DNA of 12,845 nucleotides from Gemmatimonadota bacterium (GCA_039589315.1 JBDHHQ010000120.1:1-12845); one strand, 5' to 3'. Shown: positions 6,001-12,000, numbered from the stretch's first letter. Made by a program: the numbers.

Positions 6001-9000
6001 GCCGAAGCAGGCCTGGGATCGAGCCCCTCCAGCGACGCGACCGATCTTCTGCGGCTGATTCTGATCCGGTGGCAGGAATACAACTACACGCTGAACGTGG
6101 TGGCCACCGACGTGGACCGGAATCAGGCCCGCCAGGCCGTGGACACCACCCGCGAGAGCATCCTGGCCGGCGAGGCCATCGTCCGGGCGAACCAGCAGAT
6201 CCGCGCACCGGAGATCGAGCGCCTCACCGCCTACGAGCGGCAGCTCCAGACCCTCGGTCTGGTGGAGGAGGGCGTCTCGTTACTCCCGTTCGTCGGCTCC
6301 ACCCTGGTGGCAGTCCTGCTCCTGGGCCTCTTCGGCATGTTGCTGTTCTTCTACCGCCGCGAGGTCTACACCACTTTTGTCTGGCTCTTGCTGCTGGCTT
6401 CCCTCGTCACAGGGTACTTCCTCGTGGCTTGGGTCATCGACCTGAACCGGTTCGCACCCGAGTTGCTCCCCATCGCGTTCGTCGCCCTGGCCGTTGCGGT
6501 GCTGTGGGACGGGCGCATGGCGCTGGTTCTGGTCCTGCTCCTGGCGCTGCTCACCGGCACGTTGGAGGGCTTCGCGCAGCACGGGATCGTGCTGACGACG
6601 GCCACCGGTGGCTCCGCCGCCGCGCTGAGCGTGCGGGCAGTGCGCCGCCGGGCGCAGACCTGGGTCTTCGTCGCGATCATCGCCGCGGCGTATGCAGCCA
6701 TGGTCTTCGCGCTCGGTCTGGTCGAGAGTGCCTCCGCGAGCTCGGTGTTGACCGGAACCTTCTGGGGCGTGGCCAACGCCACCGCCTCCGCGATCCTGGC
6801 CATGGGCTTCCTGCCCGTGTTCGAGTGGGTCACGGGGATCACCACCGACCAGACACTGCTGGAGTGGGCGGATCCGAATCGGTCCCTCCTGAAGCGGCTG
6901 GCCATGGAGGCGCCGGGGACCCACAGCCACTCGATTCAGGTGGCCAACCTGGCCGAGGCCGGAGCCGCCGCGATCGAGGCCAACGGGCTCCTCTGCAGAG
7001 TGGGAGCCTACTATCACGACGTCGGGAAGGTCCTGAAGCCCCAATACTTCATCGAGAACCAGCCCGAGGGCCGGAATCCCCACGACAAGCTCAAGCCGTC
7101 CACATCGGCGCAGGTCGTCCGGGAGCACGTCACCGAGGGCCTGCGTCTGGCGCGGGACGCGAAGGTCCCGAAGGCCATCGCTGACTTCATCTCGCAGCAC
7201 CACGGCACCCAACGCATCGCGTACTTCTACCAGAAGGCGGTGGAGGAAGCCGGGGAGGGTAGCGTCGATCCGGCTCCCTTCACGTATCCGGGCCCGCGTC
7301 CTCAGTCGCGGGAGACGGCGATCTGCATGTTCGCCGACTCCGTGGAGTCCGCCACGCGCGTCCTGCAGGACGCCACGCCGCAGAGGATCAGGGGGCTCGT
7401 GCACAGCCTGGTGGAGTCCAAGATCCGGGACGGTCAACTCGACGACGCCGACCTCACGCTCCGGGAGGTGGCGGTCCTCGAGGATCAGTTCGTGAAGATG
7501 GTGAGCGGCATGTACCACCACCGCATCGACTATCCTACGACCCGCCACTTGACGGAATCGCCCGACGTCTCGGCCGGTGAGGAGGGGGAAGAAGGGCCCC
7601 CCGAGGAGGCGGCTTCGGCGTCCTCGGGCTCCGATCCTGCCACGTCGGGCGGAGCTGAAGCCGGAGCACCTGAAGGCTCCCCGGCCCTGGGCCCGGACGG
7701 CGCGGGGGCGCCCGTCCGCACCGAAGCCCCCGCCTCGGAGGCCCCCGCGGACGACACCGGGGAGGAAGAAGCCCCCCAGCTCCCCGGCCTGGGCACCTGA
7801 GCCCGGCACCTGCCGATAGCCCCCGTGCTTACCGTCCACGTAAATTGCAGGGGCCGATCCGAGATCGACACCGACCTGCTGGAGTCGGCCGTGCGGCTCG
7901 TTCTCCACGCCGAGGGCGTGGAACGAGGCGAGGTTTCCGTCACGCTCCTGGGGGACGACCCCATCCGGGAGATGAACCGCGACTACCTCGGGCACGACCG
8001 GCCCACCGACGTCATCGCGTTCGCCCTGCACGGCGAGGGCGAGCCGGTACTGGGTGACGTGTACGTGGGCGTTGAGCAGGCCGAGCGGCAGGCGGTGCGA
8101 GAGGGCGTGCCGGCTCGGGATGAGCTTGCGCGTCTGGCCATCCACGGCACGCTGCACGTGCTGGGATACGACCATCCGGACGGCGAGGGCAGAAGCGCAA
8201 GCCCCATGTTCGAGCGCCAGGAGCGGCTCATGGCCGAGCTGCTGGGCGATCGCACGGGCGGGTCCCCAGAAGAAACACCGGACGGGAGAAAGTCCTTGAA
8301 CGGGTCGGGCACACCGGAAGAGACGTTGATCGCCGAGCTGCGCCAATTGATCGAGTCCGGAGAGAGCGAGAGGCTCCAGGAGATCCTCGCGGGGATGCAC
8401 CCGAGCGACGTCGCCGACCTGGTGGAGTCGATCGACGACAGCGCCAGGCGGGTGGCCTTCATACGCGCGCTCCCCTCCGAGCTCGCCTCCGAAACCCTGA
8501 GCGAGATGGAGGAGGGCGAGCAGCCGGCCGAGCTCCTGGCGGCCCTGGGACCCGTAGAAGGCGCGGCCCTGGTCCACGAGCTCGACGATGACGACGCGGC
8601 AGACCTCATCGCCGATCTGGAGCCCGCGGACAGGGACCGGATCCTGGCGGAGCTCCCGGAGGACGAGGCCGAGGACATCGAAGGTCTCCTCCAGTACGAC
8701 GAGGAGACCGCCGGTGGCCTGATGACCACTGCCCTGGTGTCCGTTCCCGAACGCATGACGGCCGCGGAGGCGATCGCCGAAGTGCGGAAGCAGGGCCGTG
8801 AGGTGGAGGACTTCTACACCGTGTTCGTCGTGGACGACCGCGGTCGCCTCCAGGGCACGGTGCCGCTGGACGACCTCATCCTGGCCGATCCCCACGAACC
8901 GGTGGCGAGCCTGGTGCAGCCCGTCGTGACCTCGGTGCTCCCGGAGTTGGACCAGGAGGAGGTGGGCCGCCTCCTCGGTCGCTACAACCTGGTGAGCGTC

Positions 9001-12000
9001 CCCGTGGTCAACGAGTTCGGGACTCTCTTGGGGCGCATCACCTTCGACGACGTCATCGACGTGATCGAGGCGGAGCAGACCGAGGACATCCTGCGCTTGG
9101 CCGGTGGCTCGGAGGACGAAGAGGTGCGGGCCCGCTGGACTGACGCCGTGCGAGAGCGCCTGCCCTGGCTGCTGATCAATCTGCTTCCGGCTACCCTGGC
9201 CGCCGCGGTCGTCTATGCCTTCGACCAGACGATCGAGAACGTGGTGATCCTGGCCGCCGTCATGCCCATCATCGCCGCGACCGGAGGGAACGCGGGCACG
9301 CAGGCCCTGGCCGTCACGATTCGGCGTATCTCGCTGGCCGGCGGGCGGGCGGAGCGGGGATCGCCAGTGTCCAAGGAGATCAAGGTAGGCCTGGCGAATG
9401 GAGCGGCCATCGGCGCCACGGTGGCAGTGCTCGCGGCCGTGGTCCCAGGCGGTAACCCCGTCCTTGGCCTGGTGGTGCTCATCGCCATGTGGGGGACGGT
9501 GTTGATGGGGGGGTTCACCGGCGCCTTTGTGCCCACGGTGTTGAACCGCGCCGGCATAGACCCGGCCGTGGCATCCGCGGTGTTTGTCACCACCCTTACC
9601 GACATGTTCGGGTTCTTCCTGCTCCTGGGCCTCGCCTCCATGTTGCTTCTATGAACCCAGAGCCCGGGAACGCCGCGGGGCCGCGACTCCTCCCGGGCCG
9701 CCCGGACGTGGAGGTGGTGGGGGAGCGGGCCAGGGGACGGCGGCACCGATGAAGCGGGTCATCCGCAGCACCTCCGTCCTCGTCCGCCTCGTGCCGTACA
9801 TCTGGGCGTTCCTGCGCGACCGGAAGCGGTGGATCATCCTGGGCCAGCCGGCCCGACGTAATGAAGCGCACCACGAGCGCCGCGCCGAGCGCCTCACGCG
9901 CACGATTGCACACCTGGGTCCCACGTTCATCAAGTTGGCCCAGCTCTTCTCGTCCCGGGCCGACCTGCTCGTCGAGCCGTACCTCTCGGCCATCGGCACG
10001 CTCCAGGACCAGGTCCCTCCGGATCCCGTGGAGCGAATCCGCTCCGTGGTGGAGGCAGAGTACGAGAAGCCCATCGGGGAAGTGTTCGACGAATTCGAGC
10101 CCGAGCCCCTGGCCGCGGCGAGCCTGGGTCAGGTTCATCGAGCGGTCGTGGGAGGGCGCGAGGCGGTGGTCAAGGTGCTGCGGCCCGGTGTGGAGGGGGT
10201 CGTGGCCCTCGACCTGGATATCTCGTTCCGCGTTCTGTTCTGGCTCAACCTCCTGTTCAGGAACCACCACGTGCAGGGGCTCACGAACGTGGTGCGGGAG
10301 TTCAGCGTGAGGGTCCGCGAGGAGATGGATTTCACCAAAGAGGCCGAGAACATCCACCACTTCCAGGAGAAGTTCCGCACCGACCGGAAGGTCAGGGCCC
10401 CCTACGTCTTCCCGGAGTACACGCGGCGCCGCGTCCTCGTCATGGAGTACTGCCGCGGCACGAAGATCGATCGTCTCCAGGACAGGTTCCGGTCTGGTAG
10501 GCTGCGGTTCGAGGACGTGATGGAGACCATCACCGGCCTCTACCTGCGCATGATGATGGTGGACGGCTTCCTTCACGCCGATCCCCATCCCGGTAACCTC
10601 CTGGTCCAGGACGACGGCACCATCGTCGTGCTGGACTGGGGCATGGTCATCCAGGTGCCGCGGTGGACCCGGGAAGACATCCTGGCCATCGCGCTGGCCG
10701 TGGAGCGGGAGAACCTCGACGGGGTCATCAACGGCATGTACCACCTGGGGATGATCAACCCCGACGTGTCCCGGGGCGAGATCCGTGAGGCGGCAACGGA
10801 GATCCTGCACATCCTCGAGCGGGTGACGGGCGGCGGGCGAGAACGGATTCAGGAGATCGTCCAGGAGATCTTCGACACCTTCTATACGTGGCCCCTGATG
10901 CTCCCCCAGGAGCTGGTGTACTTCTTCCGCACCACGGCCCTGCTCGAGGGAATCGGGTTCCGCTATCGGCCCGACTTCGACGGACTGGGCCTCGTCCGGC
11001 GGGTCATCCGGAGCTACCGCGGCGAGATCCTCCGGACCACGGCTCGGCAACCCGCCGCGGTGGCCAAGGACGTCCTCACGGAGGTCAACAGCGTCGTCCG
11101 CTCCGTCAGGGACCTCCTGCACCGGGCCGAGCGGGAAGAGCTGCGCGTGCGGATCCATCCCCGTGACCTGGGTCACCTGGAACGGAACATCCACCTCCAG
11201 GCCCGGCGGTTGCTCCTGAGCATCTTCGCTACAGCCACAGCCGTAATCACCTCGGTGCTGTTCATATCGCTCCGCAGCTGGTGGCTCCTGGCCGGAGGAC
11301 TCGTGATCTCGCTGTTCATGTTCGTCCTGATCCTCTTTTTGCCTACGCACCTGCTGGAGAACCCGCTGAGGCACGCGAGGGGAATTCGGCCGGGAGACCG
11401 GTTCTAGTGGCCGGTGGACGACACGTCGGCAGAAGGGGCGGAGGCACGGCGCCCACGATGCGCCTCGAGCGGCTCGGCCAGCCGGTCGCGACCCATCGCA
11501 TTCGTGTCAGAGGACGGTAGCATGGCCACGGAGGACCTCACCACGGCAGTGGCCAGGCTGGTGGAGCGCTTCCAGGGTGGTCAACGGCCGGCCCTCGCCC
11601 GCGCGATCACGGTCGTGGAGAACCAGCGCACGGGCTTCCAGGAGCTGCTGCACGGGGTCGTGGGTGGCGGCCTCCAGGCGCGCCGCATCGGCTTCACCGG
11701 ACCACCGGGTGCCGGCAAGTCGAGCTTGATCTCGACCCTGGCAGCCCGGTACCGGGCGCAGGCAGAGGAGGTGGCGGTGGTGGCGGTCGATCCCACGTCG
11801 CCCTACTCGGGGGGCGCGCTTCTGGGCGACCGCATCCGGATGAACGACCTGGCGACGGATCCGGGCATCTTCATCACGACCGGCGAGGTCATCGATCTGA
11901 TGGACGCCTTCGGGTTCCCACGGGTGCTGGTCGAGACGGTGGGTGTGGGGCAGACCGAGCTCGAGATCACGGGAGCGGCCGACACCGTTGTAGTGGTCCT

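Follow-up and report, generated by a model that had tools for sequence, protein, structure and literature searches.

The only ybeY gene and the only true mgtE gene of this Gemmatimonadota bacterium form one uninterrupted reading frame of 609 codons, with a GTG start and a TGA stop, at positions 7825..9654 (+) of the window (the whole stretch of 12,845 nucleotides that was analysed), as was ascertained from the ORF and its translation. The fusion is genuine and vertically inherited; it arose once and is confined to a narrow clade of uncultured soil-type bacteria. With regard to its origin and products, the explanation which we favour, with rather better than even confidence, is a frameshift in the tail of ybeY, which would have yielded a tethered YbeY and in addition an internally started MgtE, the two halves working independently. 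The locus is a real gene fusion of narrow distribution, and not a new kind of system.

Residues 1-144 (7825..8256, +) make up the YbeY domain, for which the fold of a metal-dependent endoribonuclease is predicted. PF02130 matched residues 18-139 (E 8.2e-29; 100.5 bits against a cut-off of 25; profile positions 10-129 of 129), and the NCBIfam equivalog TIGR00043 matched residues 12-139 (108.4 bits against a cut-off of 45; profile positions 7-142 of 146); a PDB sequence search showed matches of this half to the solved structures 1oz9, 1tvi, 7y7o and 1xm5. The Zn-binding motif H107-x3-H111-x5-H117 (HGTLHVLGYDH; 8143..8175, +), which the preliminary description had pointed out, is present, and its three histidines were unchanged in 58 YbeY sequences and likewise in the six fused proteins. 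An AlphaFold2 model of the whole fused protein had a mean pLDDT of 92.1, with block values of 93-98 over residues 1-140, and the final YbeY helix occupied residues 127-144.

The complete MgtE half comprises residues 164-609. It passed the NCBIfam equivalog TIGR00400 (297 bits against a cut-off of 232.75; profile positions 7-447 of 450, from residue 168), and residues 164-608 could be aligned with residues 24-470 of the 2yvx chain (E 1.7e-68). In Pfam the canonical order of MgtE was found, i.e., the cytoplasmic MgtE_N domain at residues 191-294 (8395..8706, +; PF03448; PDB 2yvy and 2yvx), a CBS pair at about residues 297-425 (8713..9099, +; two stretches of PF00571, in agreement with the AlphaFold2 secondary structure) and the membrane domain at residues 438-608 (9136..9648, +), of which PF01769 covers residues 480-603 and PDB 4u9n residues 445-608. 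Its five long helices were modelled at residues 438-464, 475-505, 514-539, 545-575 and 580-608. All 92 MgtE sequences compared share an aspartate at residue 593 in the last of these helices (D436 in A4 numbering), which presumably corresponds to the pore Asp of Thermus MgtE. The 609-residue YbeY-MgtE protein proposed earlier is thus borne out by a frame without internal stop, by Pfam and by both equivalogs.

Both halves are not only complete but also under purifying selection, since dN/dS between this genome (G000) and a second genome of the same genus (G012) was 0.22 for YbeY and 0.06-0.07 for MgtE. Recomputed over the regions matched by tblastn, the YbeY omega of the fused pair was 0.247, which falls within the span of 0.085-0.347 obtained for 11 pairs in which the genes are separate. 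Profile searches of this genome, which is 95% complete, gave one YbeY and one MgtE match above cut-off, besides an additional weak MgtE match on contig C10 (22 bits); neither a second YbeY nor a second true MgtE was found in it or in G012, and the claim that both are sole copies can be maintained.

Since the genome is a MAG (288 contigs, 5% contamination), a sequencing or assembly error could in principle have removed a stop codon or shifted the frame. This explanation is hardly credible, however, because G012 carries the same uninterrupted fused frame at 90% identity, as had been noted before, and the frame recurs in four further clusters of 73-78% identity from different sources; moreover, G000 and G012 differ by a 3-nt indel and many substitutions, every one of which preserves it. 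Altogether six fused protein clusters (at 90% identity) were obtained, originating from JGI, NCBI and Logan and from several contigs, and a tree built rapidly from 55 MgtE sequences united them in one clade with an SH-aLRT value of 100. The narrow distribution indicated by the preliminary description was evident also in larger samples: two of 314 genomes of the family contain the fusion, the genes being separate in the other 312; no further one was detected in a sample of 401 genomes of the phylum at E <= 1e-150; and among the 150 best matches in 1.84 billion representatives a single cluster (at 50% identity) spans the full length. Members of the fused clade have diverged to an identity of about 73%, and their linkers have undergone in-frame indels, yet the fusion persists; this may mean that it is itself selected, an argument subject to survivorship bias, since that search could find fused forms only.

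The linker had been given as about 50 residues; this value should be corrected to about 19 (residues 145-163; 8257..8313, +), since in the model the YbeY helix ends at residue 144 and the first MgtE helix begins at residue 164, in accordance with the starts of the TIGR00400 and 2yvx alignments. The linker was modelled as coil, and solely within it, at residues 147-159, did pLDDT fall below 50. It would correspond to the former 3' tail of ybeY, the translation-initiation region of mgtE and the first MgtE codons. Both its sequence and its length vary among the six fused proteins, the changes in length being in-frame indels, and the linkers of P0003-P0006 have diverged. It contains the densest cluster of A/T-ending codons of the gene, and the 30-nt stretch with the highest A content anywhere in the gene is situated just upstream of position 8296.

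A Shine-Dalgarno-like GGAG (8285..8288, +) is situated in the linker 7 nt ahead of an internal TTG, and is followed by TTGA (8296..8299, +), which is a candidate for the retained mgtE start (TTG, codon 158) together with the former ybeY stop TGA. The same motif at the same offset occurs in G012, where the sequence reads GGAG-7 nt-GTGA; in both genomes the TGA is in the +1 frame. Related Gemmatimonadota/Longimicrobiales possess separate ybeY and mgtE genes in the same order, with proteins that are 55-64% identical and a junction of the same layout (GGAG, 7-8 nt, NTGA; overlapping or closely spaced genes), but there the TGA terminates ybeY, whereas here it is out of frame and one protein of 609 residues results. 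Overlap of ybeY stop and mgtE start as NTGA was present in 25 of 103 distinct junctions of relatives. GGAG or GAGG was located at -12 or -11 in eight of these 25, and in 19 the MgtE start precedes the equivalent of residue 191 by 29-37 residues; for codon 158 of G000 this distance is 33.

From this arrangement the following origin is proposed. In the ancestor the TGA of ybeY would have overlapped the mgtE start as NTGA, with the GGAG ribosome-binding site of mgtE within the end of ybeY; a small indel that shifted the frame in the last ybeY codons could then have brought ybeY into the frame of mgtE, so that the TGA fell out of frame and translation continued into mgtE. The fusion came about probably by such a frameshift, because GGAG-7 nt-TTGA survives in the linker with its TGA out of frame, and it is less likely that a point mutation abolished an in-frame stop. 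Since the join resembles an ordinary overlapping junction of closely packed genes, a small accident suffices to explain it. The 72 unfused adjacent loci comprised 19 with both genes in the same frame and 53 without, near the expectation of one third by chance.

As the ribosome-binding site and start codon of mgtE survive in the linker, MgtE may also be made alone. Initiation at the retained GGAG and TTG/GTG start would give a free MgtE of 452 residues; the start at codon 158 would leave 34 residues before the HPSD anchor, which matches the N-terminal length of 90 stand-alone MgtE proteins (median 32.5). Among 2340 ORFs of this genome, GGAG at -11 was found for 2.33% of the NTG codons situated close to the 5' end of an ORF versus 0.36% of internal in-frame NTG codons, a 6.5-fold enrichment, and codon 158 is the sole one of the 60 in-frame NTG codons of the fused gene with this feature. 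About 10% of the internal in-frame NTG codons of the genome have GGAG or GAGG somewhere within -15..-5, and the signal therefore rests on its exact offset and context. The site could be a non-working relic, and its conservation is not independent evidence, since the DNA compared is that of two closely related genomes.

The full-length product would consist of a cytoplasmic YbeY, predicted to be catalytically intact, on about 19 disordered residues in front of a complete MgtE. The N-terminus of MgtE is presumably cytoplasmic, as in the structure of the Thermus protein (2yvx, aligned above), and YbeY would then be kept against the inner side of the membrane. Probably, then, the cell makes its sole YbeY attached to a membrane channel, and to this extent the membrane-tethered, Mg2+-coupled YbeY of the preliminary description is upheld as a real, inherited fusion of the sole YbeY, with membrane placement to be expected; its coupling to Mg2+ found no support. 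It might be argued that the fusion exists at the gene level only, the linker being cut or the full-length protein being a minor product, so that free YbeY and free MgtE are present as in relatives. A linker which is disordered and exposed and the retention of an internal Shine-Dalgarno sequence and MgtE start would fit this idea, as would the ribosomal and cytosolic nature of the YbeY partners uS11 and Era named in PMC10582724. We consider it quite unlikely nevertheless: neither a site for a protease nor an element capable of self-cleavage was recognised in the fused protein, a stop or known recoding signal by which YbeY could be released is absent, and translation from the ybeY start must run into mgtE. 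Tethering also seems to be tolerated, since YbeY occurs fused to other membrane proteins.

The gene order is phoH - 7TM-HD - ybeY::mgtE, as stated in the preliminary description. The gene directly upstream (5353..7800, +) encodes a PgpH-like 7TM receptor with an HD hydrolase domain (PF07697, PF07698, PF01966); it is preceded by a phoH/ybeZ-like ATPase gene (4310..5356, +, start approximate; PF02562, E 3e-92), whose stop overlaps the GTG start of the 7TM-HD gene as GTGA, with GGAG 8 nt before (5341-5356), an arrangement like the one preserved in the linker. The longest phoH ORF begins at 4007, within aspS. The two CorC-type genes of this genome are located elsewhere, on contigs C3 and C65, and mgtE therefore holds the place which ybeX/corC has in the ybeZYX operon of E. 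coli. All of the 30 family loci have ybeY immediately upstream of mgtE, as do 73 of 80 genome loci, in agreement with the linkage reported earlier; in 72 of those 73 the two genes are separate. Although the evidence is indirect, so strong an adjacency may fairly be taken to point to a connection of YbeY with Mg2+ transport.

Such a link would be the basis for functional coupling, in which selection favoured the fusion since YbeY has to work next to the Mg2+ channel, either by placing 16S maturation and ribosome quality control at the site of Mg2+ entry or by Mg2+-dependent movements of the MgtE N-domain that control access to the nuclease; in that case it would be a true Rosetta stone for the association of ybeY with Mg2+ transporters. 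Besides the frequent adjacency, it could be adduced that the fusion is the sole YbeY in two genomes, that it was kept across the clade with in-frame linker indels, and that purifying selection on YbeY is normal. A CBS-domain Mg2+ transporter gene adjoins ybeY here and in the E. coli operon ybeZ-ybeY-ybeX(corC)-lnt, the latter being described in bioRxiv 10.1101/2023.03.20.533420, and mgtE occupies the ybeX/corC position, as a real link would predict. Deletion of ybeX led to accumulation of 17S pre-rRNA under Mg2+ limitation, according to bioRxiv 10.64898/2026.07.10.737703, but the same study concludes that E. coli YbeX and YbeY act by distinct mechanisms. Against coupling there are also the single origin and narrow spread of the fusion, the disordered and poorly conserved linker and the retained start signals of mgtE, and a frameshift at an ordinary overlapping junction explains the junction anatomy. 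In related bacteria YbeY is joined to unrelated partners, as 7TM-HD-YbeY, YbeY-Pyr_redox (pyridine-nucleotide disulphide oxidoreductase), YbeY-ACR_tran and YbeY-Lnt, which weakens a partner-specific Rosetta stone reading. Of that earlier proposal it can be retained that the parts are separate elsewhere; in the genomes and sequence sets searched the fusion is neither recurrent nor widespread. Analyses of the sequences of the fused gene and its relatives yielded no evidence that the activity or placement of YbeY depends on Mg2+ import, and functional coupling would seem unlikely, although not negligible.

More doubtful still is a strict form of it, with YbeY obligatorily carried on the Mg2+-sensing domain of MgtE, so that the Mg2+-dependent movement of this domain, or else the local influx of Mg2+, would decide whether the nuclease can reach 30S subunits that are immature or defective. 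If this were true, the supply of magnesium would directly govern the final step of 16S maturation as well as 70S quality control, and the position of ybeY beside genes for CBS-domain Mg2+ transporters (mgtE; corC/ybeX in Proteobacteria) would have a physical explanation. Most likely the YbeY half carries out its usual 16S rRNA 3'-end maturation and ribosome quality control independently of MgtE, and the MgtE half its usual gated Mg2+ influx independently of YbeY; the fusion probably persists as harmless, or as a guarantee of co-expression, and not for control of the nuclease by the channel.

The listings of a literature search revealed no published description of a YbeY-MgtE fusion. The fused ORF is an intact YbeY in frame with the product of the adjacent gene, like the other fusions of YbeY with neighbours. 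Section 15 of PMC10582724 describes YbeY-Era fusions in Clostridia, some Selenomonadales and Thermoleophilum album, in which likewise an N-terminal YbeY is joined to a frequent operon neighbour; fusion at its C-terminus is therefore tolerated by YbeY. Era is a cytosolic ribosome-assembly GTPase which binds YbeY, whereas MgtE is a membrane channel. We know of no contact between MgtE and YbeY. The E. coli operon (bioRxiv 10.1101/2023.03.20.533420) is similar in having phoH/ybeZ upstream and a gene for a CBS-domain divalent-cation transporter directly downstream of ybeY, and it links Mg2+ with 17S pre-rRNA processing (bioRxiv 10.64898/2026.07.10.737703); its transporter, however, is of the CorC/CNNM type (a putative efflux protein) and not MgtE, its genes are separate, and the present locus differs from it also in the 7TM-HD gene between phoH and ybeY. 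The MgtE of Thermus thermophilus (2yvx, 2zy9, 5x9h) shows the same order of N domain, CBS pair and five membrane helices, but without an N-terminal nuclease domain. A precedent for tethering is provided by RNase E of E. coli and RNase Y of B. subtilis, which are anchored in the membrane and process RNA at its inner face, although their folds are unrelated to YbeY and they are anchored by an amphipathic helix or by one transmembrane helix rather than by a channel.

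The fused ybeY::mgtE gene is located at 7825–9654 (plus strand) of the window, i.e., of all 12,845 bases of contig C120 of a MAG (the source genome G000; 288 contigs, completeness 95%, contamination 5%). It consists of 609 codons, begins with GTG and is free of internal stops, and both domains were matched in this one frame, in agreement with the preliminary description. Pfam analysis placed YbeY at residues 18–139 (E 8.2e-29), followed by MgtE_N (191–294), two CBS domains and MgtE (480–603). The curated cut-offs of the NCBIfam equivalogs TIGR00043 (YbeY; 108.4 bits, cut-off 45) and TIGR00400 (mgtE; 297 bits, cut-off 232.75) were passed. 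Searches of PDB sequences matched the N-terminal part to the solved YbeY proteins 1oz9, 1tvi, 7y7o and 1xm5, and residues 164–608 to Thermus MgtE (2yvx). The metal motif noted earlier for YbeY was recovered, with H107, H111 and H117 invariant in 58 YbeY sequences.

An AlphaFold2 model of the fused protein had a mean pLDDT of 92.1. The input alignment (A2; fused, YbeY-only and MgtE-only sequences aligned together in 125 rows, some of them imperfectly placed) smeared the N-termini of MgtE proteins into the YbeY region and served solely for folding; separate alignments of YbeY (A3) and MgtE (A4) underlie every other analysis. In the model the final YbeY helix stops at residue 144 and the first MgtE helix begins at residue 164, joined by a coil with pLDDT <50 at residues 147–159; thus, the linker comprises about 19 residues, and the earlier estimate of about 50 is to be revised. 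A predicted complex between the YbeY domain (A3) and the cytoplasmic part of MgtE (A4, positions 1–285) scored 0.00 against a mark of 0.32, with controls omitted; it lent no support to an interaction and counts neither for nor against it.

Judged from comparative searches, the fusion is real, inherited and narrowly distributed. The genome of the same genus, G012, carries an uninterrupted frame, as had been described. In the family, covered by 314 genomes from 81 genera, G000 and G012 were the only ones with an uninterrupted frame at E ≤ 1e-175, and an unthresholded search of 61 family genomes returned again these two; a sample of 401 genomes of the phylum yielded no further uninterrupted match at E ≤ 1e-150. 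A word-indexed search with residues 1–175, limited to target proteins of 334–1066 aa, gave 14 proteins: six YbeY-MgtE fusions, four fusions of YbeY with a pyridine-nucleotide disulphide oxidoreductase and four 7TM-HD-YbeY proteins. The six YbeY-MgtE proteins (P0001–P0006), which stem from JGI, NCBI and Logan contigs, are 73–90% identical to the query over the full length, differ in sequence and length of the linker, and grouped as one clade (SH-aLRT 100) when 55 MgtE sequences were placed in a quick maximum-likelihood tree. A profile search with A3, restricted to longer proteins, found the same six fusions besides 7TM-HD-YbeY, YbeY-ACR_tran and YbeY-Lnt proteins. In a library of 1.84 billion representatives, P0002 alone spanned residues 1–609 among the best 150 of 34,304 matches, and no hidden YbeY was present in six longer MgtE representatives (P0132, P0067, P0085, P0112, P0078 and P0046). 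A scan of metagenomes contained no fusion in 34 loci; at one of these (L048), ybeY and mgtE lie in one frame, yet with two stops. A scan of genomes contained one fusion in 80 loci (L082), the gene sequence of which is identical to that of G012.

The position of ybeY upstream of mgtE, which the preliminary description had put forward as a conserved linkage, was confirmed: the two genes are directly adjacent in all 30 family loci and in 73 of 80 genome loci, and ybeY was read from the search table as lying directly 5' of mgtE in 45 of 61 family genomes. Where adjacent genes are unfused (n = 72), they share a frame in 19 cases and differ in 53; about one-third would be expected in the same frame by chance. 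The stop of ybeY overlaps a start in the mgtE frame as NTGA (TGA over ATG, GTG or TTG) at 25 of 103 distinct junctions; in 19 of the 25 the mgtE start is located 29–37 residues ahead of the equivalent of residue 191, and eight have GGAG or GAGG at -12 or -11. The linker of the fused gene has the same layout, with GGAG at 8285–8288 (+), 7 nt before TTGA at 8296–8299 (+), whose TTG (codon 158) lies 33 positions ahead of residue 191; in G012 the linker reads GGAG-7 nt-GTGA, and in both genomes the TGA sits in the +1 frame. The simplest history of the join, as suggested by these sequences, would be a frameshifting indel in the final codons of ybeY, which would have shifted ybeY into the frame of mgtE; the overlapping stop of ybeY would then have been bypassed, with one protein as the result. 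The join may also, though less probably, have arisen by loss of an in-frame stop from a layout such as that in genomes G008 or G038. Programmed +1 frameshifting at TTGA, which would free YbeY, was considered and dropped, as a slippery codon is absent and the spacing of the Shine-Dalgarno (SD) sequence differs from that in prfB.

The former mgtE start could still be in use, and internal initiation at codon 158 is regarded as somewhat favoured by the sequence. A first SD test, which accepted any GGAG or GAGG at -15 to -5, gave 15% versus 10% and was replaced by an offset-resolved test with 2340 codon-biased ORFs of G000. Here GGAG at -11 was present ahead of 2.33% of the NTG codons that fall among codons 1–60 of open frames, compared with 0.36% for in-frame NTG codons in the interior of genes; the fused gene has 60 in-frame NTG codons, and none but codon 158 shows this feature. 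Nowhere in the gene is a 30-nt stretch richer in A than directly before 8296 (40% versus 16%), and codons ending in A or T are clustered most densely at codons 142–157. A start at codon 158 would lie 34 residues ahead of the HPSD anchor, compared with a median of 32.5 in 90 stand-alone MgtE proteins, and the L158V exchange between G000 and G012 preserves a start codon. Against internal initiation, the loosely defined motif is frequent within genes (about 10%), and conservation of the site rests on two close kin, G000 and G012.

Between these genomes the linker carries one 3-nt indel, and dN/dS was 0.22 for YbeY, 0.06 for the cytoplasmic part of MgtE and 0.07 for the membrane part. Recomputed for tblastn-matched regions, omega of the fused YbeY was 0.247, which is within the range of 0.085–0.347 for 11 pairs of relatives with separate genes; therefore, the fused YbeY is under ordinary constraint. 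As a separate observation, dS between G000 and G012, from the comparison with L005, was 0.28 in the YbeY part (7825–8250) and 0.58–0.71 in the MgtE part (8395–9651); the approximately halved value could be due to chance, codon constraint or recombination.

YbeY and MgtE had been described as the only copies in G000, which holds, with one match each above cut-off; G012 likewise has one of each. A conserved match to the MgtE domain of about 22 bits, below the cut-off, was found in frames of about 400 aa at C10:14282–14545 (-) in G000 and C278:1810–2133 (-) in G012, and may represent a distant MgtE/SLC41-like membrane protein. The sole CorA match in G000, at C82:18414–18659 (-), extends over profile positions 155–237 (of 292) within a 114-aa open frame and could represent a gene fragment or a disrupted gene; two CorC_HlyC proteins are encoded away from the fusion, on C3 and C65. 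Because of the partial CorA and the two CorC_HlyC proteins, MgtE is not the sole candidate for a Mg2+ transporter in G000.

The fused gene is preceded by aspS, phoH and a 7TM-HD hydrolase gene and followed by an ABC1 kinase-like gene and meaB, all on the plus strand. The stop of phoH overlaps the 7TM-HD start as GTGA with GGAG 8 nt before (5341–5356), which points to translational coupling within the operon. The longest phoH ORF begins within aspS, about 300 nt ahead of the aspS stop (4007–4310); its PhoH domain begins at residue 234, and the true start is probably near 4310–4390. An antisense frame of 871 codons at 6280–8895 (-), opposite 7TM-HD and ybeY, lacks family support; long spurious ORFs are usual in a genome with 67.5% GC, and this frame is most likely one of them. 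Rfam searches of the whole window gave no families, including no M-box or other riboswitch; scans of 4000–11500 gave no promoter-like sites and two terminator-like sites, which were not above shuffles.

Both halves look fully functional and a second YbeY is absent; thus, the full-length protein should carry out the role of YbeY attached to MgtE. Since the N-terminus of MgtE is cytoplasmic in the Thermus structure, YbeY would sit at the inner face of the membrane. Tethered RNases exist, e.g., RNase E and RNase Y. YbeY accepts C-terminal fusions, of which YbeY-Era is an example (PMC10582724). The preliminary reading as a tethered YbeY coupled to Mg2+ import is supported in part: the fusion exists and a tethered YbeY is plausible, whereas nothing that demonstrates coupling to Mg2+ was found. 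The best reading is a tolerated fusion of neighbours via a frameshift at an overlapping stop/start, with the mgtE start probably active.

Other partners of YbeY are found among related proteins. In P0007, P0008, P0012 and P0013 (605–607 aa), from metagenomes and MAGs, YbeY is N-terminal to a pyridine-nucleotide disulphide oxidoreductase that is complete (Pyr_redox_2 and dimerisation domain), a further fusion of YbeY with a neighbour, on which no paper came to notice. P0009, P0010, P0011 and P0014 (873–950 aa; one named from a Longimicrobiaceae MAG) combine the 7TM-HD hydrolase with a C-terminal YbeY; according to these sequences, the partner is the upstream neighbour, and YbeY is predicted to be membrane-tethered by something other than MgtE. 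From precomputed Pfam labels only, P0174 (593 aa) carries YbeY and ACR_tran (RND pump), and P0175 (668 aa) YbeY, LNT_N and CN_hydrolase (Lnt). A full-text literature search, with relevance judged by title, found no treatment of a fusion or linkage between YbeY and MgtE; as a class, fusions of YbeY to products of operon neighbours are already known, and YbeY-MgtE is a new pairing within it.

The mode of action of YbeY is debated, as is the reason for the linkage of ybeY to Mg2+ transporter genes. A natural lineage with its sole YbeY on a Mg2+ channel is a ready-made construct for testing whether a membrane-tethered YbeY works, whether proximity of the channel or Mg2+ affects its activity, and by which route a translationally coupled pair becomes a fusion with the internal start retained. 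If the fusion is a tolerated accident, which is most likely, its chief value is as a clean case of frameshift fusion at an NTGA overlap and as a warning that fused neighbours do not by themselves prove physical coupling. In E. coli, loss of ybeX perturbs 17S processing when Mg2+ is limited, according to one study (bioRxiv 10.1101/2023.03.20.533420), whereas a later one concludes that distinct mechanisms underlie the action of YbeX and YbeY (bioRxiv 10.64898/2026.07.10.737703). There ybeY is followed by ybeX/corC and in G000 by mgtE, both of which are genes for CBS-domain Mg2+ transporters, and this synteny is an indirect argument for a link between ybeY and Mg2+ transport.
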